A stretch of DNA of 64,000 nucleotides from Elusimicrobiota bacterium (GTDB taxonomy: Bacteria > Elusimicrobiota > Elusimicrobia > Elusimicrobiales > UBA9959). Below, one piece after another: positions 37,364 to 47,683 of this stretch. The DNA is taken from the NCBI GenBank assembly GCA_012517235.1, contig JAAYVI010000117.1:1-64000 (forward strand), read 5' to 3'. A program made the position numbers and the translations under genes. The notes beneath the pieces are model-generated. The model was not told the DNA's origin. It was given only the letters and a program-made list of their open reading frames with translations, and ran no database searches. Within the stretch, counting starts at the first letter, position 1. Each line of letters opens with the position of its first letter.

Positions 37364-38122
37364 TCATTTAAAATTTTTAAGTATGCCTGTTCTCGTTATT
37401 GAGAAATCGTATTTAACCGGATCTTGCGGATTTATTTTTCTAAAAAAAGAAGTTATCTCTTCGGCCGTTTTCATTGAGCCGTCTTTTCTTTTTGTTATGC
37501 CTAATTTTTGAGAAATAGAAAGCATGTGGGTATCCAGAGGTATTATAAGACCTTTGGGAGAAATATTTTTCCAAACGCCCAAATCTATTTTATCTTTTCT
37601 TATCATCCATCTGAGATATAAGTTAAACCTTTTGAAAGAACTTTTCTTTTCGGGACAAGGAGTAAGCGTAGGCGCGCAGGCGGAATAGTTTAATTCGTTG
37701 ACAAATCTATATAAACAGCCTATATAATTTTTTTCTTCTTCTCTTATGTTTTTTACGAATAGATTTTCCAGAGTTCCGTATTTGATCAGTACTTTTTTGA
37801 TGTTTATTAGAAATACGGTCAATTCTCCTCCGGTAGTAAATCTATGTTTGAAACTTAAAAAATCTTTCGCTATTTCATGATTTTTTTTCTTTTCGAGATA
37901 AAGGCGCGGTGATTTTCCCATAACTAAAAAAACTTTACCGAGAGATTTTAGTATTTGCTTTACATTGCCGTAAGCCAGAGAAGATGCTATCAATCCGGCT
38001 ATTTCCGCGTCCAAATGATTTTTTTCGTAGTTATAGACCAGACTTATGGGGTCGCTGAAAGCATAAGAACGGTTATTGTATTTTTTATAAAGATTTTCAA
38101 AAAAAGCTTTGTCGGCAAGCAT
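37364..38122 (-). CDS. DUF2400/TIGR02757-like conserved hypothetical protein
   Basis: about 250 aa with LIIPLDTH motif; family assignment is from memory. Confidence 0.5.
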   Translation of the reverse strand: MLADKAFFENLYKKYNNRSYAFSDPISLVYNYEKNHLDAEIAGLIASSLAYGNVKQILKSLGKVFLVMGKSPRLYLEKKKNHEIAKDFLSFKHRFTTGGELTVFLINIKKVLIKYGTLENLFVKNIREEEKNYIGCLYRFVNELNYSACAPTLTPCPEKKSSFKRFNLYLRWMIRKDKIDLGVWKNISPKGLIIPLDTHMLSISQKLGITKRKDGSMKTAEEITSFFRKINPQDPVKYDFSITRTGILKNFK

Positions 38123-38181
38123 AGAGAAATTATATCAAAACGGCGGGCCGAACCGGCCCGCCGTTTCTTTTTAGGGAAGGA

Positions 38182-39837
38182 TTATACCTTGCTTAGTTTT
38201 AATATGGTTTTTAAGTCTTCTTCGGCGGTTTTTACCGGCATAATATTAAATTTCTCTACGAGAACTTTTAATACGGCCGGAGTTATGAAAGCGGGTAAGG
38301 AAGGTCCTATCCTTATATTTTTTATACCCAGGTATAACAAGGTCAGGAGTATGCATACCGCCTTTTGTTCGTACCAGGAAAGAATCAGAGAAAGAGGCAG
38401 TTCGTTTACCGATACGTTAAAAGCTTTTGATAAAGCCAAAGCTATTTGTATGGCCGAATATGCGTCGTTACATTGTCCGGCGTCCAAAAGACGAGGAATA
38501 CCTTCTATATTCCCGAATTCCATTTTATTGAATCTGAATTTTCCGCAAGCCAAAGTAAGTATTATCGTATCCTTGGGAGCTTTTTCGGCAAATTCCGTAT
38601 AATAATTTCTTCCCGGTTTGGCGCCGTCGCAGCCGCCTATCAAAAAGAAATGTTTTATTTTGCCTTTCTTTACGTTTTCTATTACGGCGGGAGCGGCGGA
38701 AATCACCGCGTTTCTCGCAAATCCCACGGTTATTGTCTTTTCTTCTTCGTCTTTTTCAAATCCTTTTTCGTTTAAAGCGGCTTCTATGACGGGGGAGAAA
38801 TCTTTATTTGATACATGTTTTACGCCCGGCCATTGAACCAAACCGCTCGTAAAAATTCTTTTTTCATATCCTTTCGGTTCTTGTATGCAGTTGGTGGTCA
38901 TAAGTATGGCGCCCGGGAATTTTTTGAATTCTTTTTGTTGGTCCTGCCAAGCTCCGCCGTAATTTCCGGCCAAGTGTTTATATTTTTTAAGTTTTGGATA
39001 ACCGTGGGCGGGAAGCATTTCGCCGTGAGTGTATATGTTTATACCTTTGCCTTCGGTTTGCTTTAGAAGTTCTTCCAAATCTTTTAGATCGTGTCCCGAT
39101 ACGAGTATCGCTTTTCCTTTTAGCGGAGTAATTCTTACTTGAGTGGGAACGGGATGACCGTAAGCGTCGGTATTGGCTTTATCCAAAAGTTCCATTACTC
39201 TTAAATTTATTTCTCCGCATTTCATATTCGTCGCAAATAATTCTTCTACCGTATGACTATCTTTGGTTAGGAAAGAAAGCGCTTCGTGAAAAAAAGCAAA
39301 TACTTTTTCGTCGGTTTGTCCCAGTATCATCGCATGGTCGGCATAGGCGGCCGTTCCTTTGAGTCCGTAGGTCAAAAGTTCTCTAAGAGCGGTTATGTCG
39401 TCTCCGTCTTTCTTTTGAGAGCTTTTTATTCCGTTTTCATAAGCGAAATTTATAAGGTCCGAAAGTTTTTCCGAAGGCTGCCATTTTGAGTGCGGAGGAA
39501 TTTCTTTTTCGTTAAGTCCCGCTTTTTTGTATTGATTTGCCAGCTCTTTTTTTATCTCTTGGCCTTCTTTTATTATATTCCTTATATTTTCCGAGTCGAA
39601 ATTGACATTTGTTACCGTGGTAAAAAGAGATTCTATTACGTATTTGTCGGCTTTGGAAGTTTTTATGCCTTTTTTATTTAAAGCGTTTGCATAAAACGAA
39701 ATTCCTTTGACTTGATAAACCAAAAGATCCTGCATCAAAGCCGTTTCGGGGTCTTTGCCGCAAATACCTATGCTGTCGCATCCTTTTCCGCCTTTGGCTT
39801 GTTCGCATTGGTAGCAAAACATTTTTTCAGATGACAT
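38182..39837 (-). CDS. hcp: hybrid cluster protein (hydroxylamine reductase / NO-detoxifying Hcp)
   Basis: N-terminal CYQCEQAKGGKGCDSIGICGK; 551 aa. Confidence 0.9.
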   Translation of the reverse strand: MSSEKMFCYQCEQAKGGKGCDSIGICGKDPETALMQDLLVYQVKGISFYANALNKKGIKTSKADKYVIESLFTTVTNVNFDSENIRNIIKEGQEIKKELANQYKKAGLNEKEIPPHSKWQPSEKLSDLINFAYENGIKSSQKKDGDDITALRELLTYGLKGTAAYADHAMILGQTDEKVFAFFHEALSFLTKDSHTVEELFATNMKCGEINLRVMELLDKANTDAYGHPVPTQVRITPLKGKAILVSGHDLKDLEELLKQTEGKGINIYTHGEMLPAHGYPKLKKYKHLAGNYGGAWQDQQKEFKKFPGAILMTTNCIQEPKGYEKRIFTSGLVQWPGVKHVSNKDFSPVIEAALNEKGFEKDEEEKTITVGFARNAVISAAPAVIENVKKGKIKHFFLIGGCDGAKPGRNYYTEFAEKAPKDTIILTLACGKFRFNKMEFGNIEGIPRLLDAGQCNDAYSAIQIALALSKAFNVSVNELPLSLILSWYEQKAVCILLTLLYLGIKNIRIGPSLPAFITPAVLKVLVEKFNIMPVKTAEEDLKTILKLSKV

Positions 39838-40248: not shown

Positions 40249-40353
40249 ATTGTCTCCTTATAAGGTTAAATAGGATTTATGATACCAATATACCAATTTA
40301 AACCTAAAAAAACAAACTTTTGATTTTCCGTTTTCGGTCTTTTAAGAGAGCGC

Positions 40354-40383
40354 TTGACTTAATGATACTAAAAATGTATCATT
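40354..40383 (+). promoter_or_regulatory. promoter TTGACT-N17-TATCAT overlapped by a perfect palindrome AATGATAC-N7-GTATCATT (candidate Rrf2 operator)
   Basis: direct reading of the divergent region between the Rrf2 gene and the ccsB-like gene. Confidence 0.45.
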
Positions 40384-40428
40384 TCTAAAAAGACTTGTCA
40401 AGAGTTTCTTAAAAAGATATCTTAAAAT

Positions 40429-41370
40429 ATGCGAAATTTTAAAGATAGAATGAAGAAAACGATAGAAATAATTTCTTCCGTAAATTTTTTTGCTTTCGTA
40501 TCTTCTCTTTTCGCATTTTTTTTGGTTTATGAAACTCTTGTTTACAAAGGCGATCCGGGAAAATTTTATTTTATTTACGCTTTTTTGGGGATTCTGATCG
40601 TTTTAAATATTTTTTTATGTTCCGCTTCCCGGTTTTTTGGAAAAATAAAGTCGAAACCGCACTTCAAACTTATACATTGGGGAATTATAATAGTCATATT
40701 GGGATTTATTTTTAGCGGAATTTTTTCTTTTCAAGGGGAGATGTTTCTTGTTAAAGGAGAGGAAAGCAATCTGGTTCAAAGCGCGGACGGAATTTATAAA
40801 CTGCCTTTTAGAATAAAATTAGAAGGTTTTTATATAGAGTATTATAAAGATCCCAAACCGTATATATATTTTAAAGACGAAACGAACGGTAAAGTATCGG
40901 CCGAAAAAGGAGTTAAATTAAAAAAAGGAGATATTTCCTGCGAAGTAGAGAATTTTTATTCGGATTTTTCCATAAAGGGAGACGGTAAATTTTTTTCCAA
41001 AACTCTTTATTATAATAATCCCGCAGTTCTTTTGTCTTGTTATTCGGGGAAAAATAAAAGCAGATTTTGGCTTTTCGAAAAAAAATCGGGACATATCTCG
41101 GAAAATTTGCCTTTCGAACTCAAAATAGAAGATGCCGATATAAAAGATTTTAAAAGCGAAATATCTATATTTTATAAAGGCGATTCGGTTAAAGCGGATG
41201 TGTCCGTAAATAACCCTTTTTCGTTTGAAGGCTATAAGATTTATCAGACAAGTTACGAACCTTCTCAGGGAGAAGCTTCGATTTTAACCGTAAAAAAAGA
41301 CAAATGGTTTTGGCTTGTCATGTTAGGATTTATTTCTCTGTCTCTGGGAGTTTTATTATGGATAATTTGA
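40429..41370 (+). CDS. ccsB: short ResB/CcsB-like cytochrome c biogenesis membrane protein
   Basis: N-terminal TM segments, periplasmic domain, C-terminal TM; 13-nt overlap with ccsA; 313 aa. Confidence 0.55.
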   Translation: MRNFKDRMKKTIEIISSVNFFAFVSSLFAFFLVYETLVYKGDPGKFYFIYAFLGILIVLNIFLCSASRFFGKIKSKPHFKLIHWGIIIVILGFIFSGIFSFQGEMFLVKGEESNLVQSADGIYKLPFRIKLEGFYIEYYKDPKPYIYFKDETNGKVSAEKGVKLKKGDISCEVENFYSDFSIKGDGKFFSKTLYYNNPAVLLSCYSGKNKSRFWLFEKKSGHISENLPFELKIEDADIKDFKSEISIFYKGDSVKADVSVNNPFSFEGYKIYQTSYEPSQGEASILTVKKDKWFWLVMLGFISLSLGVLLWII

Positions 41371-42119
41371 TAAATTCTTCTCTTCTTTTCTCTTTGGTTT
41401 CTCTGGTATTCTATTTTTTGCACGGCATATTTAAGGTTAAAAAAACTTCTTCTCTATTCGTTGTTTCTTTGTTTTTATCTTGGCTTTTTTCTTTGCTTTA
41501 TTTTGTCCTATATTCTTTCAAAAACGCAAGGCTGCCCCTTTCAAATCAATACGAATCGGTTTTGCTTCTTTCTCAGGCCGCTTTTGCCGGAGGATTTTAT
41601 TTTTACTTTGGAAAAGGGAAAAATATTCAAAATCTTTTGCCTTCGGCCGTTTCGGGGGCAATTTTGCTCTCTTTGCTTAATCTTTTGGATTCTTCGGCCC
41701 GTCCTTTGATGCCGGCTTTAAGGTCTAATTGGCTGTTTTTTCACGTATTTACCGCCATGATTTCTTACGCTTTTTTCTTCTTGGCCGCGATAAAAGGATT
41801 TCTGGATCTTTTATCTAAAAAAGAAAATGAAAACTCTTACGAATTGCCTTTGGTAAAATCCGGTTTTGCCATGCTTACATTGGCGATAATTACCGGCGCG
41901 GTATGGGCCGAGAACGCATGGAACAGATATTGGAGCTGGGATCCCAAGGAAACATGGTCTTTGATAACTTGGCTTTATTACGGCTGCGTACTGCATTTAA
42001 ACAAGAAGTATTTTACGCGCAAAATGTTTTATGTTTCCTTGATTATAGGCATTTTTGTCGTGATATTTACTTATTTCGGAGTTAATTATCTTTTGAGCGG
42101 TTTGCATAGTTATGCTTAA
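41358..42119 (+). CDS. ccsA: cytochrome c assembly protein CcsA (system II heme lyase)
   Basis: WWD domain WAENAWNRYWSWDPKETWSLITW; alternative in-frame start at 41304. Confidence 0.8.
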   Translation: MDNLINSSLLFSLVSLVFYFLHGIFKVKKTSSLFVVSLFLSWLFSLLYFVLYSFKNARLPLSNQYESVLLLSQAAFAGGFYFYFGKGKNIQNLLPSAVSGAILLSLLNLLDSSARPLMPALRSNWLFFHVFTAMISYAFFFLAAIKGFLDLLSKKENENSYELPLVKSGFAMLTLAIITGAVWAENAWNRYWSWDPKETWSLITWLYYGCVLHLNKKYFTRKMFYVSLIIGIFVVIFTYFGVNYLLSGLHSYA

Positions 42120-42591
42120 AAAAATAAGAACGATTTTATTAAAAAACTCATTTTTAATTTTTTGGGCTTCCGCTTTGGCTTTTACGGGGGCGGCGGTTTC
42201 CTTGCCTCCTATCGTCCATTTTTCGGAAAGTTCTTTTTTTTGCGGCTTATGTCATTCTATGAAAGATCAATATAAAACCTGGAGCGTTTCCAGACACAGA
42301 ACGCTAAAATGCGTCGACTGCCACTTGCCTAATTCCAATAAGGCCGAGCATTTTTTTTGGAAAGCGGTGGACGGCAATAAAGATTTGATAAGCGAAACAT
42401 TAGGTTTAAAAGAAGATTATGAAATACGGCTTTCGTCTCACGGAAAGAAAGTTTTGCAGGAAAACTGCATAAGATGCCACGCCGATGTCGTTTCCAGAAT
42501 GAATACCAAAAGAAACTGCGTCGATTGTCATAGAGGCGTTTCTCATATTAAAACCGCGGCGGTTTGTTCTTATAATACGGAGGTAAAATGA
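42112..42591 (+). CDS. nrfH: NrfH (NapC/NirT-family tetraheme quinol dehydrogenase)
   Basis: four CxxCH motifs (CGLCH, CVDCH, CIRCH, CVDCH); N-terminal TM; 159 aa. Confidence 0.85.
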   Translation: MLKKIRTILLKNSFLIFWASALAFTGAAVSLPPIVHFSESSFFCGLCHSMKDQYKTWSVSRHRTLKCVDCHLPNSNKAEHFFWKAVDGNKDLISETLGLKEDYEIRLSSHGKKVLQENCIRCHADVVSRMNTKRNCVDCHRGVSHIKTAAVCSYNTEVK

Positions 42592-44027
42592 AGAATAAAA
42601 TATTTTATCCGCTTTTTTGTCTTGTCTTTGCGGCATGTTCGAAAAGCGCGGATCCGATTAAAATTTCGTCCATAGCGGATAAGGAGTACGAGCCTCAAAA
42701 ATGGCAGGCGAATTATCCGGCGGAATACGAATTATGGGAAAAAACAAAAGAACCCACGCCGGCGGGAAAAAGTTATTACAAAAAAGGCTGGGATACGGAC
42801 GGTAAAATTTACGATAAATTGTCGGAGTTTCCTTATATGCCTCTTTTATTTAAAGGATGGGGTTTCGGCATAGAATATAATGAGCCGAGAGGCCATTATC
42901 ATATGCTTAAAGACGTATTGGAGGTGGATTCCGCCAGAAGAAAAGCCGGAGGAGTTTGTCTTACATGTAAAACTCCTTACGCTCAGGAACTTAGAGACAA
43001 ATACGGCAAGGATTATTTTTCCAAACCTTTTGAAACGGTTCATTCGTGGATACCTAAAAATCACAGGGAACTGGGCGTGGCCTGCGTCTCGTGTCATAAA
43101 GGAGAAAACGCCGATTTGAGGATATTAAACGATTTTACTCTCGGCGCGGCTTTGAGAAATATGAATTTCGATTTGAAATCGGCTTCTCATCAGGATATGA
43201 GAACCTTGGTATGCGCTCAATGCCATGTTACATATGTGGTGAGCAAAGACAAGGAAATGAAATCTCAGAACGTATTTTTCCCTTGGAATAATTCAAAATA
43301 CGGGAAAATAAACATAGAAGACATAATAAAAACCATAAAAAGCGATCCGGCCAATTTGGAATGGACTCAAGCCGTTACGGGCTTTAAGTTGGGTTTTATA
43401 AGACATCCGGAATTTGAACTTTTCAGCAATCAAAGTCTGCACTGGAAAGCCGGTCTTTCTTGCGCCGATTGCCATATGCCTTATGTAAGATACGGTTCGT
43501 ATAAAGTTTCCGATCATAGAGTAATGAGCCCGCTTAAAAACGGTTTGCGCGCCTGCGTACAGTGCCATTCTCAAGGAGAAGAATGGTTGAGAGACAGAAT
43601 TAAATTTACTCAAGACAGAACCGTATCGATGCTTATAAGGAGCGGATATTCTACGGCCGTTTCGGCAAAAATATTCGAAAAGTTGAATAAAGCCCGCTCC
43701 GAAGGGAAAAATATAGATAAAAATCTTTACGATAAAGCCAGAGAATATTACGAGCAGGCTTTTTACAGAATAGTATTCATAGGAGCGGAAAACTCTTTGG
43801 GATTTCATAATCCTCAAGAAACATTGAGAGTATTGGCGGACGCTTCTTCCTTTGCGGCAAAAAGCGAGGCTCTTTTAAGACAGGCGGCCGCTCAAGCCGG
43901 GATATATCTGCCCGAGAAAATAGATCTGGAATTAAACAAATATTTGACCGACAGAGGCGAGAAAAAACTTAATTTTGATTCTAAGGTAGAATTTAAAGAC
44001 CCTTTTAAGATTCAGGATTATTTTTAA
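42588..44027 (+). CDS. nrfA: cytochrome c552 nitrite reductase, pentaheme catalytic subunit
   Basis: CLTCK (CXXCK active-site heme) plus CVSCH, CAQCH, CADCH and CVQCH. Confidence 0.9.
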   Translation: MKNKIFYPLFCLVFAACSKSADPIKISSIADKEYEPQKWQANYPAEYELWEKTKEPTPAGKSYYKKGWDTDGKIYDKLSEFPYMPLLFKGWGFGIEYNEPRGHYHMLKDVLEVDSARRKAGGVCLTCKTPYAQELRDKYGKDYFSKPFETVHSWIPKNHRELGVACVSCHKGENADLRILNDFTLGAALRNMNFDLKSASHQDMRTLVCAQCHVTYVVSKDKEMKSQNVFFPWNNSKYGKINIEDIIKTIKSDPANLEWTQAVTGFKLGFIRHPEFELFSNQSLHWKAGLSCADCHMPYVRYGSYKVSDHRVMSPLKNGLRACVQCHSQGEEWLRDRIKFTQDRTVSMLIRSGYSTAVSAKIFEKLNKARSEGKNIDKNLYDKAREYYEQAFYRIVFIGAENSLGFHNPQETLRVLADASSFAAKSEALLRQAAAQAGIYLPEKIDLELNKYLTDRGEKKLNFDSKVEFKDPFKIQDYF

Positions 44028-44036
44028 GGAGGTTTT

Positions 44037-45194
44037 ATGGGCGGTATAAATAAAAAAGAATTTATAAAAGAAGTATTAAAAAAATTATCCTCCGGCATGT
44101 CTTTTCAAGACGCCAAAAAGGAAGTTCTGTCAAAAATAGGCAATATCGAATCTTCCGAACTTTTTTTAATAGAACAGGAGCTTATTAACGAAGGAATATC
44201 TCCGGAAGAAATAAAAAGATTCTGCAATGTGCATGCTTTGCTTTTCGAAGGAATATTTGAAAATAAAATTTCGGATCCTTCTTCGCCGTCTCATCCGATT
44301 AATCTTTTTAAGTCGGAAAATAAAGCGATAAAAACAAAAACGGAAGAATTGAAAAAAAATATCGGGAAATCAGGCAAAGATGATATATTAAAATCGCTCG
44401 AAGAACTTAAAAGCGGCATATATGTTCATTACGAGAGAAAAGAGCAAATACTCTTTCCTTACTTGGAAAGAAAAGGTTTTTTCGGCCCTTCCAAAGTAAT
44501 GTGGGGAAAAGATAACGAAGTAAGAGATCTTTTTAAAAAAGCTTTTGACAATATAAATTTCGAAAATTTTGAAAAAGATTATCTAAATCCTTTATTGGAA
44601 GAGATAGACTCAATGATATTTAAGGAAGAGAATGTTCTTTTTCCGACTTCTCTGGAAAAATTGGAACCTTCGGATTGGACCGAGATTTTTAAACAAAGCG
44701 CTTCCTCAGGGTATGCTTTCATAGAGCCGCCGAAAGAAAATTTTGAAGTTCAAGATTTGAATAAAAGATCCGTAAGATCTTTTTTTGAAGACGGGAAAGT
44801 GAATTTTCCTACGGGAAAAGTTTCTTTGGAGGAACTTAGAAAGCTATTGGATTGTCTTCCCGTAGATTTGACTTTTGTCGACAAGGACGGAAAAGTCGCT
44901 TATTTCTCCAATTCTTCGGAAAGAGTTTTTTTAAGAACTCCTTCGGTAATAGGCCGGGAAGTTAAGAACTGTCATCCTCCTCAAAGTTTGCCCGCGGTGG
45001 AAAAAGTTATCGAAGACTTGAAGAACGGAATAAAAAAATATCATGATTTTTGGCTCAATATAAAAGGCAGAACCGTATATATCAGATATTTTCCGGTAAG
45101 AGACGAATTCGGAACTTTTATGGGAATTTTGGAAGTTACTCAGGATATAACCGAAATAAAGAAGATAGAAGGCGAGAAAAGACTCGCAAGCTGA
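44037..45194 (+). CDS. DUF438/hemerythrin-like/PAS domain protein
   Basis: architecture typical of DUF438-PAS proteins; C-terminal PAS-like region; family assignment is from memory. Confidence 0.6.
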   Translation: MGGINKKEFIKEVLKKLSSGMSFQDAKKEVLSKIGNIESSELFLIEQELINEGISPEEIKRFCNVHALLFEGIFENKISDPSSPSHPINLFKSENKAIKTKTEELKKNIGKSGKDDILKSLEELKSGIYVHYERKEQILFPYLERKGFFGPSKVMWGKDNEVRDLFKKAFDNINFENFEKDYLNPLLEEIDSMIFKEENVLFPTSLEKLEPSDWTEIFKQSASSGYAFIEPPKENFEVQDLNKRSVRSFFEDGKVNFPTGKVSLEELRKLLDCLPVDLTFVDKDGKVAYFSNSSERVFLRTPSVIGREVKNCHPPQSLPAVEKVIEDLKNGIKKYHDFWLNIKGRTVYIRYFPVRDEFGTFMGILEVTQDITEIKKIEGEKRLAS

Positions 45195-45201
45195 GGAAAA
45201 T

Positions 45202-45432
45202 ATGGAAGAAAAAATAATAAATCCGGATTGGACTTTATTTGAAATACTGGAAAAATATCCCCAGGCGGAAAATGTTTTGTATAGTTTGGGTTTTGCCGGA
45301 GTTAAAAATCCGGTTATGAAAAACACTCACGCAAGAATTATGACTTTAAGAAAGGGATGTTCTCATTTGGGTATAGAAGAAAAAAAAGTTAAAGAAGAGC
45401 TTGAGAAAGCGGGATTTAAAATAAGTTTTTGA
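45202..45432 (+). CDS. DUF1858 small protein
   Basis: 76 aa; WTLFEILEKYPQAENVLYSLGFAG. Confidence 0.55.
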   Translation: MEEKIINPDWTLFEILEKYPQAENVLYSLGFAGVKNPVMKNTHARIMTLRKGCSHLGIEEKKVKEELEKAGFKISF

Positions 45433-46451
45433 TGAGGCTTAAGTATTATTTCGAATACTATAAAGATAAAATTCAGATTTTAAGGCTGATATCTCTTTCT
45501 TTTTTTTCGTTCTTGGCCGTATCGGCCGGAATAAAATTTCATCTTTTTATAAAAAGTCTGGAAACTGGTCAAGTCTTAGAAAGACCTCCCGGCGCCGACG
45601 CTTTTTTACCCATAAGTTCTTTGATGAATATAAGGCATTTATTTGAATTTAAAAGCGTTCATTCGGCGCATCCGGCCGGTTTTTTTATTCTGCTTGCGGC
45701 TTTGTTTTCTTCCTGGCTTTTTTCGAAATCTTTTTGCTCTTGGGTTTGTCCTTTCGGATTCTTCTCGGAGTTTTTGACGAATATTAGAAAAATTCTCATA
45801 AATAAAGATTTTAAGATCCCGGTTTTTTTGGATTATCCTATGAGGGGGATAAAATATCTCATATTGACCTTCTTTATTTATGTTATTTTTTTCGCAATGG
45901 ACGCAGATTCCATAAAATTGTTTTTGGATTCCGATTATAATAAAATTTCGGATATTAAGATGTATCTTTTCTTTGCGCAAATTACTCCTTTTGCTCTGAA
46001 GATAATTTTGGTTTTAATCGTTTTAACTTTCTTTTTTAACTTTTTTTGGTGTCGTTATTTATGTCCTTACGGAGCTTTGACAGCTTTGAGCGGTTTTTTG
46101 TCGCTTTTTAAAATAAAAAGAACGGCAAGCGGATGCGTAAATTGCGGCTCTTGCGCCGACGCTTGTCCGCATAATATAAAAACAGACAAGATTAATACCG
46201 TCTTTTCAGACGATTGCACTTTTTGTCTTTTATGCGTAAGTTCTTCCAAATGCGGCGTTTTAAATGTTTCTCCGATATTTTCAAATAAAAGAATAAGTCC
46301 TTATCTGGTATTTTTTTCCGTAATTTTTATTTTTGCTTTTTTTAAATATTTTGCCGTGTTTCAAGGTTTGTGGCAAAATAATATAAAACCGCAGGAATAT
46401 AAAGTACTTTACGAGAAAAGAAATTACTTAGATCATCCGCGCGGATATTAA
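45429..46451 (+). CDS. NapH/MauN-like membrane polyferredoxin (4Fe-4S-binding)
   Basis: CSWVCPFG and CRYLCPYG TM motifs plus C-terminal CVNCGSCADACP and CTFCLLCVSSSKCG. Confidence 0.6.
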   Translation: MMRLKYYFEYYKDKIQILRLISLSFFSFLAVSAGIKFHLFIKSLETGQVLERPPGADAFLPISSLMNIRHLFEFKSVHSAHPAGFFILLAALFSSWLFSKSFCSWVCPFGFFSEFLTNIRKILINKDFKIPVFLDYPMRGIKYLILTFFIYVIFFAMDADSIKLFLDSDYNKISDIKMYLFFAQITPFALKIILVLIVLTFFFNFFWCRYLCPYGALTALSGFLSLFKIKRTASGCVNCGSCADACPHNIKTDKINTVFSDDCTFCLLCVSSSKCGVLNVSPIFSNKRISPYLVFFSVIFIFAFFKYFAVFQGLWQNNIKPQEYKVLYEKRNYLDHPRGY

Positions 46452-47683
46452 AATTTTACCGAAGTAAGCTTTCTTACCAATTCGTCATATCCGAAAGAAG
46501 AATCTTCTACCGTCATATCGGCGGCTTCGCTGTCGAGATTATCTATTAAAATAGGTATTTCGCTTCTTTTTTCCTGGTATTTCGGTATGGTTTGAGTTAC
46601 GCAGTGAATCGATCCGCCCGAAGTTATCGAATCGTCGGAGTTTACTTGTACCACGCTTATTCCGGGAATGCCTTGCTTATAAGCGTTTTCGGCTTTTATG
46701 TTGTCTTCGTCGTGCCCGGAATAAGAAGGCATTATGACTACGGAATTGACTATCAAAGAATTGGTATAAGTATACCATGTGCCGGAATACCATCCGCCGC
46801 CGTCATACCAGCCTTTTACGGTTATTATTTTGTAAGGATGTCCGTCCGGAGCGGTTTTGTTTTTGAAAAATTCTATCGCTTTTTGAGAATTACTCTTAAA
46901 GGGTTCTTGTTCGGCTGTGGAAATTAAAACGGTATGATCGTTTAAAAGTTTCATGAACATATCTATGTGCCCCGTTCCGTCTTTCGGTTCTCCCGGAAAG
47001 CCCGCATATTCGAAAACATATATGTTCTTTGCTTTGAAAGCGCTTTTAAGAGCGGCGTCTACCTGTTCTTTGCTCATATTTGAATTCCAGATATATGTTC
47101 TTTCCGTGGTAAAAAGATTACCGTAAGAATCTATCATGAAGTTGCCGCCGTCTAAAATCAATTCGGTTTGATATACGGGTATGTTTTTTGTTTTGCCTAT
47201 TACTTGAGGAACGGCATCGTCGTTTCTTCTATATTGATAATGTCTGTAAACCGTATCCACTATGGCCGGCTTTACCCCGGAAGAAGACAAACCGAAAGGG
47301 CCGTAATCTCTTACCCATACCGTGTCCACGGGGGCGGGAATTCTTTGCCAGCATTTTGTGTCCAGTCCGCTTATCGATTGAGGAGCGGCGTTTACCCATA
47401 CTTTGGCATTGCCTTTTTCGCAAGCCGCTTTTGCTATTTGAGTAAGCATACCGGTATATCCGGCCCAAGATATTACTACAGCCGATATCGGTTCGTATTC
47501 GGCCGGTATTCTAAAATCGGAAGGCACGGAGGCTCTGGTATGAAGCAGAAAAGGACCTTTGCCGTCCGGAGTTTCTCTATTGGGATCTATCCAATTGGGA
47601 AGAGGCTTTTGTAAGTCTAAAGAAAACGAGAAAGATACGAGATAAAAAATAAAAAATACCGATATGAAAGATCTTTTTTTCAT
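46448..47683 (-). CDS. secreted agmatine-deiminase / Porphyromonas-type peptidylarginine deiminase family enzyme
   Basis: signal peptide MKKRSFISVFFIFYLVSFSFS; C-terminal catalytic-Cys motif GGSIHCVTQTIP; start placed at MKKRSF after GGAG. Confidence 0.75.
   Translation of the reverse strand: MKKRSFISVFFIFYLVSFSFSLDLQKPLPNWIDPNRETPDGKGPFLLHTRASVPSDFRIPAEYEPISAVVISWAGYTGMLTQIAKAACEKGNAKVWVNAAPQSISGLDTKCWQRIPAPVDTVWVRDYGPFGLSSSGVKPAIVDTVYRHYQYRRNDDAVPQVIGKTKNIPVYQTELILDGGNFMIDSYGNLFTTERTYIWNSNMSKEQVDAALKSAFKAKNIYVFEYAGFPGEPKDGTGHIDMFMKLLNDHTVLISTAEQEPFKSNSQKAIEFFKNKTAPDGHPYKIITVKGWYDGGGWYSGTWYTYTNSLIVNSVVIMPSYSGHDEDNIKAENAYKQGIPGISVVQVNSDDSITSGGSIHCVTQTIPKYQEKRSEIPILIDNLDSEAADMTVEDSSFGYDELVRKLTSVKF

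Follow-up and report, generated by a model that had tools for sequence, protein, structure and literature searches.

A candidate clade-specific operator on the overlapping divergent promoters of rrf2-hcp and ccsBA-nrfHA in Elusimicrobia

In the window (the whole 64,000-nucleotide stretch of Elusimicrobiota DNA that was analysed), a gene for an Rrf2-family regulator followed by hcp is transcribed divergently from a ccsBA-nrfHA operon, and a perfect inverted repeat lies between them. The first-pass annotation had put this palindrome forward as a candidate Rrf2/NsrR operator through which a single site might control both the NO-detoxification arm (rrf2-hcp) and the nitrite-reduction arm. Is the palindrome an operator, which promoters would it control, and which protein would bind it? 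Our best reading, at a probability of roughly 0.8, is that it is an operator for a dimeric protein. We identify the occupant more tentatively: the adjacent Rrf2 protein, binding in a non-canonical mode, has in our judgement a little less than an even chance.

The gene cluster and its Rrf2 regulator

Profile scans upheld the annotated gene calls and divergent layout (Table 1), and likewise the distance of 180 bp between the Rrf2 gene and ccsB. The terminator directly 3' of hcp is strong, setting the rrf2-hcp transcription unit apart from the DUF2400-rubrerythrin-tpx-dfx-rubredoxin genes. An extended -10 sequence, TGATATAAT (38122-38137, - strand), ends 7 nt 5' of the DUF2400-gene ATG (38122), from which a leaderless mRNA is predicted for that gene. 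On the other side of the intergenic region, the longest ccsB/ResB ORF runs from 40429 to 41370 on the + strand. An alternative ATG at 40450 (MKKTIEII...) is probably the true ccsB start, as it fits the 304-aa orthologues in two relatives (L001 and L153).

Three genes stand 3' of nrfA (44037-46451), encoding a DUF438-hemerythrin-PAS protein, a DUF1858 protein and a NapH-like ferredoxin; they always follow nrfA in the clade of close relatives described below (window, L001, L005, L153). In D. desulfuricans, the 'YtfE-like hemerythrin-PAS' protein Ddes_1165 is NO-induced (PMC5701242). We considered the DUF438-hemerythrin-PAS protein as a possible DNA binder and dropped it: its solved homologue, 3CAX, lacks the N-terminal (DUF438) domain, and there was no hint of a helix-turn-helix. 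The conserved cluster of 12-15 kb encodes no DNA-binding regulator other than Rrf2, and scans of 34 further window ORFs, every ORF of 120-310 aa included, brought no second one to light. Over the 39 window ORFs scanned in all, the nearest things to a second regulator gene that the Pfam search turned up were proteins consisting of a receiver domain alone and a fragment of an AsnC ligand domain.

The Rrf2 winged-helix domain was confirmed by PF02082 (82 bits) and TIGR00738 (84.6 bits, cut-off 73.3). Against the NsrR equivalog model NF008240 the protein reached 31.5 bits, below the cut-off of 182, and it fell far below every cut-off of the IscR, RirA, HypR, CymR and SufR-type models. The window Rrf2 is not an NsrR orthologue; only generic Rrf2 superfamily models were passed. 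An NCBI protein 100% identical to it is named only 'Rrf2 family transcriptional regulator'. Among solved structures, the window Rrf2 comes closest to S. coelicolor NsrR (ScNsrR; 5N07, E = 8e-11; profile E = 3e-12). Three cysteines, C98, C104 and C109, are invariant in 11 relatives and align with the ScNsrR cluster ligands C93/C99/C105; they are spaced C-x5-C-x4-C in the window protein, but C-x6-C-x4-C among the relatives. The fourth cluster ligand in ScNsrR is an N-terminal carboxylate, Asp8. HMMER alignments of the window protein to NsrR start at residue 21-22, and Glu12, in KISEA, is a candidate by eye for an Asp8-like ligand. It is plausible from these residues that the protein is an Fe-S, NsrR-like sensor, and its signal would presumably be NO.

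Table 1. Features of the rrf2-hcp/ccsBA-nrfHA region, in window coordinates
Feature	Position	Strand	Basis
Intrinsic terminator closing the rrf2-hcp unit	38137-38167	-	14-bp stem, 10 GC pairs, then TTTT
hcp (hybrid cluster protein / hydroxylamine reductase)	38182-39837	-	836 bits (cut-off 367)
Rrf2-family regulator, 133 aa	39847-40248	-	Rrf2 profile matches
Canonical subfamily operator, AATTGGTATATTGGTATCATAAATCCTATT	40269-40298	-	Family PWM, 21.4 bits
Invariant GCTCTC block (GAGAGC on +) in the distal rrf2-hcp leader	40346-40351	-	Invariant in 7 of 7 aligned clade sequences
Promoter-like site for ccsBA-nrfHA: TTGACT (40354-40359), N17, TATCAT (40377-40382)	40354-40382	+	Promoter scan, 10/12
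Flagged 23-bp palindrome, AATGATAC / TAAAAAT / GTATCATT, candidate shared operator	40361-40383	strandless	Conserved in L001-8, L149, L150, L153
Distal promoter-like site for rrf2-hcp: TTGACA (40401-40396), N17, TACATT (40378-40373)	40373-40401	-	Promoter scan, 10/12
ccsB-ccsA-nrfH-nrfA operon	40429-44027	+	Profile matches

A conserved palindrome on two predicted face-to-face promoters

The inverted repeat is as annotated, with AATGATAC at 40361-40368, the spacer TAAAAAT at 40369-40375 and GTATCATT at 40376-40383. A perfect 8-bp inverted repeat is by itself within chance: the window holds 53 matches with spacers of 0-12 (about 40 distinct sites), and 11.8% of shuffles of the 180-bp region contain at least one (4.6% for spacers of 5-9). 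The significance of this one comes from its conservation. The 23-mer is unique within the 64-kb window even at 3 mismatches, and no further copies were found at up to 2 mismatches in the window, L001, L005, L006 or L153, nor any upstream of the neighbouring rbr-tpx-dfx-rd stress genes. Over the window and ~0.93 Mb of related loci, amounting to ~3% of any one genome, the motif was single-copy and present only at the orthologous position.

The clade was compared through seven diverged Elusimicrobia relatives (L001-4, L005, L006-8, L149, L150, L153/154), whose Rrf2 proteins are 55-64% identical to that of the window. All seven have the palindrome, placed identically with respect to the -35 boxes, in the clade form AAAATGATAY-NTTTTWN-RTRNCATTAA, and the intergenic DNA between the conserved blocks is randomised to the point of being unalignable. 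Arm symmetry is perfect in the window, L150 and L153, with 1-2 mismatches in the other relatives; in L005, both symmetric inner positions have changed as a pair (C..G to T..A). The arms are perfect in L150 despite replacement of the adjacent ccsB -35 box by other sequence. L006 and L149 keep the palindrome without a divergent ccsB, their upstream gene being co-directional. This persistence without ccsB, together with the perfect arms of L150, indicates that the palindrome is selected for itself and belongs primarily to rrf2-hcp. The left arm (40361-68) is perfect in three lineages, including L150, that are only ~62-63% identical to the window at the protein level; its outer AATG is invariant in the clade, and its inner positions vary without compensation (GTATC, GTGCC, GTGTC, ATGTC, GTAGC). 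Just downstream of the palindrome in the rrf2 sense, the GCTCTC hexamer is retained in L150 though the adjacent GTCAAG is lost.

The promoter scan recovered TTGACT-N17-TATCAT, annotated earlier as being overlapped by the palindrome at its spacer and -10, and both of its hexamers are conserved in L001, L005 and L153, the carriers of a divergent ccsB. A mirror promoter on the - strand, absent from the first-pass annotation, faces it. The TG at 40381-80 gives this distal rrf2-hcp promoter an extended -10, and TTGACA-N14-TGATAYNTT is kept in all clade members with sequence reaching that far. In the window, as in L001, L005 and L153, exactly 36 bp separate the two -35 boxes. The -10 hexamers share 2 bp within the right arm of the palindrome (40376-83), which doubles as TATCAT on the + strand and as the TGATAC of the extended -10 on the - strand; carrying both -10 elements explains the invariance of this arm. 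At over 70 other loci of the hcp-linked Rrf2 subfamily, TTGACA-N17-TATAGT lies upstream of rrf2, so that ordinary sigma-70-type promoters are used in the subfamily and the two TTGAC boxes are credible as -35 elements. A larger imperfect inverted repeat (40338-40417) was considered as a mobile element, and that reading was rejected: only its two TTGAC boxes are kept in relatives, which marks them as -35 hexamers and not as terminal repeats.

Start sites are predicted at ~40389 for ccsBA-nrfHA (+) and ~40366 for distal rrf2-hcp (-), which would place the palindrome across -28..-6 of the former promoter and -17..+6 of the latter. One bound dimer could then block both promoters, and two polymerases would exclude each other as well. 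Several features expected of a shared operator are present: opposite-strand promoter-like sites have overlapping cores that are conserved in orthologues, the dyad covers both -10 regions, and arm 40361-68 is conserved without a promoter role. The earlier proposal that a single site gates both arms stands in its geometry, in that the palindrome covers both promoter cores; the starts, the repression and the binding protein are predicted parts of it.

Could the symmetry be a product of the promoters themselves? It might arise where opposed promoters share a -10 and the initial transcribed sequence of the rrf2-hcp leader is conserved, with no dedicated protein involved. The double duty of arm 40376-83 would suffice for its invariance, the uncompensated variation inside arm 40361-68 suits such an account, and 8-bp inverted repeats alone are not rare. 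Arm 40361-68 argues the other way. It occupies part of the ccsB spacer and positions +1..+6 of rrf2, where it has no promoter role, and yet it is conserved, remaining perfect in three lineages that include L150 with its replaced -35. That two 8-mers under independent constraint should mirror each other exactly has a chance of order 1e-3 or less, and we regard this explanation as improbable. Much less probable still is an RNA hairpin (an attenuator or stability element) or a cruciform. The 8-bp stem does fold at -7 to -8.5 kcal/mol (z = -2.2 to -4.4), but a transcript from either predicted start would include just one arm, the single pair in L005 is the only compensatory change between arms, and the palindrome has no T-tract after it, no terminator call and no match to an Rfam family.

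The probable operator of the hcp-linked Rrf2 subfamily

One-genome-per-species scans and JGI metagenomes supplied 139 further loci of the hcp-linked Rrf2 subfamily from many lineages, among them Elusimicrobia, Gastranaerophilales, Planctomycetota, Verrucomicrobiota, Desulfobacterota and Myxococcota. The hcp start is at most 250 nt from the rrf2 stop in 50 of the 108 non-redundant loci with enough downstream sequence, and the gene order rrf2-hcp-DUF2400-rubrerythrin is the rule in Elusimicrobia. The subfamily is widespread and apparently undescribed: we found no published description of it or of its motif in the open-access literature, a search that does not prove absence. The recognition helix, SYNHLSKVLQRL, is essentially invariant across the 139 further loci and the window clade; being the same in the clade as in the rest of the subfamily, it gives no sign of changed specificity.

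A motif with the consensus TATTGGTATAGTAGTACCAGAATACCA = TATTGGTATAGTAGTACCAGAATACCAAAA was found upstream of rrf2 in 96 of 117 non-redundant loci outside the clade, across many phyla. It is built from GGTAT/GTAC/ATACC units with an 8-bp period, and in Gastranaerophilales it takes the form of a perfect long palindrome (TTGGTAT-tat-AGTACT-aaa-ATACCAA). It overlaps the -10 of the TTGACA-N17-TATAGT promoter, with TTGAC 16-18 nt upstream of its TATAGT part in 73 of the 96 motif-bearing loci, and it ends a median of 15 nt from the start codon (IQR 13-18). Extra copies precede hcp in L060 (4470-4499), L088 (4465-4494) and L142 (422-451) and rubrerythrin in L083 (1780-1809), and one follows a napH-like gene in L122 (6163-6192). 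These copies appear to outline a small regulon beyond autoregulation. As the motif travels with rrf2 across phyla and marks extra stress genes, this three-unit motif is almost certainly the operator of the hcp-linked Rrf2 subfamily.

The window has its own copy, orthologous to the motif of the 96 non-clade loci and lying 21 nt upstream of the rrf2 ATG (Table 1). It is the top PWM match among ~128,000 window positions; the next unrelated match scores 8.5 bits. Its units are GGTAT (40294-90), GGTATC (40286-81) and AATCC (40277-73), the last of them degenerate. Within it is a TG-extended -10-like sequence, TGGTATATT, which may be the -10 of an ancestral proximal rrf2 promoter, the -35 there being reduced to a TTG remnant. 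The same weakened form of the operator (~19-22 bits) is found in L001, L005, L006 and L150, compared with 31-39 bits in other Elusimicrobia. Another likeness in the window, ACATGGTATACTTATACCAATTC (46751-46780, - strand, 8.2 bits; also L090, 102-131), lies within the agmatine deiminase gene and is probably a coincidence of coding sequence (WYTYT). A group of Rrf2 paralogues (L092-L094, ~2030-2080), 48% identical and without hcp downstream, has a family-type operator with a TTGACA box on the reverse strand at its flank, pointing to a further divergent promoter that shares the operator.

Outside the clade, nrfHA, ccsB or napH-like genes were noted on the same strand downstream of rrf2-hcp, in other Elusimicrobia (L106, L107, L122, L131) and in a Myxococcota MAG (L088). 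Rrf2 control of nitrite-reduction genes may thus be ancestral, and the divergent layout of the window clade seems to have arisen by rearrangement from a cluster that was once co-directional.

The flagged palindrome is a different element, ~65-95 bases from the canonical operator, which is the one next to the rrf2 gene. The label of Rrf2/NsrR operator did not survive comparison, because the regulator fails the NsrR model and the site departs from both the NsrR and the subfamily consensus. Neither the NsrR consensus, gATGyAT-N5-ATrCATc (PMC1274295), nor the ScNsrR hmpA1 23-mer fits the spacing and core of the palindrome. Its ATG...CAT span of 21 bp is 4 bp longer than the 17 of the NsrR consensus, and its halves share in register 4 of 11 positions with E. 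coli or S. coelicolor NsrR half-sites. The likeness to an 11-1-11 site that had been remarked on therefore holds for the 23-bp length and the AA/TT ends, and fails for the core and spacing.

Scores against the subfamily operator tell the same. In every register and on both strands, the family PWM gave the palindrome -15.3 bits at best, versus +21.4 at 40269-40298. With a half-site PWM each arm scored only -3 to -4 bits, a value that 7-8% of random 10-mers also attain. Either arm agrees at 8/11 positions with AATTGGTAGAT, the ScNsrR hmpA1 half-site, and at as many with AATTGGTATAT of the window itself; the mismatches to the half-site PWM hit its most conserved bases, and the resemblance (TGnTA) is largely an extended -10 signature. 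The core, GATAC-N7-GTATC, is 3-5 bp out of register with the GGTAT-N4-ATACC (or N12) of the subfamily. The palindrome does overlap the -10 of a TTGACA-N17 promoter, yet it lies 113 nt from the ATG, compared with the subfamily median of 15. We also weighed and set aside two links between the elements. A 20-nt likeness of the right arm plus GTCAAG to units 2-3 of the proximal operator (15/20 in L153, 8-12/20 in other clade members) was treated as chance, and looping between the two sites was rejected on their centre-to-centre distances of 70.5-89.5 bp, which are out of helical phase.

Relatives of the motif upstream of hcp/nrf orthologues, on which the first-pass annotation had staked its interpretation, proved to exist in one narrow clade. 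At up to 3 mismatches, palindromes of the flagged type were found in 0 of 117 non-clade upstream regions, with a mismatch distribution equal to that of shuffles. The restriction to the orthologous clade position points to a clade-specific addition, and the palindrome is most likely a second operator specific to this clade. It would have come with the new distal promoter, upstream of the ancestral operator-promoter.

Candidate occupants and known systems

The explanation we favour is as follows. The palindrome would be an operator peculiar to the clade, lying where the -10 regions of two divergent sigma-70-type promoters overlap, and a dimer bound there would exclude RNA polymerase from both the ccsBA-nrfHA and the distal rrf2-hcp promoters. 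The occupant would be the adjacent [Fe-S]-type Rrf2 in a second, non-canonical mode, with each arm, AAATGATACAT, serving as a weak half-site that resembles the family half-site. The canonical, ancestral operator of Rrf2 would be distinct from it, located at 40269-40298 on the proximal promoter. For an operator on both promoters speak the two opposite-strand 10/12 matches with -10 hexamers overlapping within the palindrome, the symmetric paired change in L005, and the exact 36-bp spacing in which the palindrome and both -35 boxes are held in the syntenic L001, L005 and L153.

The choice of protein is harder. IscR, another Rrf2 protein, reads two unrelated motif types. Rrf2 is here the sole DNA-binding regulator encoded in the conserved cluster, and a single copy of the palindrome in ~0.93 Mb plus the window fits a local factor and not a global one. 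In its 23-bp length and A/T ends the palindrome agrees with the footprint of ScNsrR, the closest homologue of solved structure (PMC9338935), the arms share 8/11 positions with the family half-site, and half-site use has been reported for NsrR proteins (PMC4432287). The possibly ancestral Rrf2 control of nitrite-reduction genes is in line with this as well. Against Rrf2 as the occupant count the PWM deficit at the palindrome relative to the neighbouring canonical site, the low half-site scores of both arms, the core spacing out of register with the family operator, and a recognition helix that does not differ between the clade and other subfamily members.

The main alternative is that an unlinked dimeric regulator, such as an anaerobiosis, nitrite or redox factor, binds the palindrome and blocks both overlapping promoters; Rrf2 would then act only at 40269-40298, occluding the proximal promoter and roadblocking the distal one. 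It is favoured by the two clearly different conserved elements in one control region, by a palindrome unlike the family motif by PWM, half-site PWM and spacing, by the absence of that palindrome from the 117 non-clade subfamily loci, and by an unchanged Rrf2 recognition helix. One site per 64 kb would also be expected of a global factor with sparse sites. Such a regulator is neither encoded in the conserved cluster nor recognised among the window ORFs scanned, and no further copy of the palindrome precedes the neighbouring rbr-tpx-dfx-rd genes. The spacing is off that of HcpR (TTGAC-N4-GTCAA) and of the NsrR consensus (PMC1274295). By eye, it is also off FNR/CRP, Fur/PerR (7-1-7) and NarL (7-2-7). 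We hold the unlinked factor to be a serious possibility of the second rank; if it is real, hcp would integrate two signals and nrf would lie outside Rrf2 control.

The adjacent Rrf2 in a second binding mode, which we prefer, has a stronger form, in which an Rrf2 with an unchanged helix gained a second, unrelated 23-bp operator on mutually exclusive promoters, and one NO-labile dimer switches hcp and nrf together. That whole chain seems to us rather unlikely. If true, the gain of the second operator would be an IscR-like dual-motif case at its evolutionary origin.

As an object the palindrome is of an ordinary kind, a candidate promoter-overlapping operator, and its modest interest lies in the overlap of divergent promoters and the separation from the true family operator. 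The known principles of Rrf2/NsrR-type regulation are unchanged by these results. What they add is a likely operator and likely core regulon (rrf2, hcp and sometimes rubrerythrin) for a widespread Rrf2 subfamily, and a reminder that an obvious palindrome beside a regulator gene is not necessarily the site of that regulator. If the palindrome is a working operator, it would show how, in an uncultured phylum, nitrite respiration can be coupled to NO detoxification, or uncoupled from it, through a compact arrangement.

The nearest known system is NsrR, an Rrf2-family [4Fe-4S] sensor of NO, as seen in the S. coelicolor NsrR-hmpA1 complex (PDB 7B0C; PMC9338935, PMC4432287), with which the window Rrf2 shares the wing motif Gx2GGx2L and the recognition-helix pattern Y-x-H-x-x-K. 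Like NsrR, it appears to be of the autoregulated repressor type beside an NO-detoxification gene. The subfamily half-site, AATTGGTAT, differs little from AATTGGTAG, that of hmpA1, and the GGTAT-N4-ATACC pair matches the 11-1-11 geometry of ScNsrR to within half a base pair per half-site. Unlike NsrR, the window Rrf2 is linked to hcp and not to hmp, and its family operator has a three-unit, 8-bp-periodic layout that is undescribed for NsrR.

In E. coli, hcp-hcr and nrfA are reportedly both repressed by NsrR. The hcp-hcr operon had been predicted as an NsrR target there (PMC1274295). The proposed logic would be the same if the palindrome is Rrf2-bound, with one NO-sensing Rrf2 repressor tying hcp to nrf. 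The E. coli targets are unlinked and have their own NsrR sites, whereas here the candidate is a single site on overlapping divergent promoters. IscR, with its type 1 and type 2 sites, provides what our favoured explanation requires, namely one Rrf2 protein with one recognition helix and two dissimilar motifs. The IscR motifs, however, are similar in length and both have been shown biochemically, whereas the second motif here is a candidate that differs in half-site spacing. HcpR, of the CRP/FNR family (PMC1274295), resembles the window Rrf2 as a dedicated regulator beside hcp in anaerobes with a palindromic site at the hcp promoter. It belongs to another protein family and reads TGTGA-N6-TCACA or TTGAC-N4-GTCAA; the TTGAC boxes of the window, by contrast, stand 36 bp apart and are -35-like.
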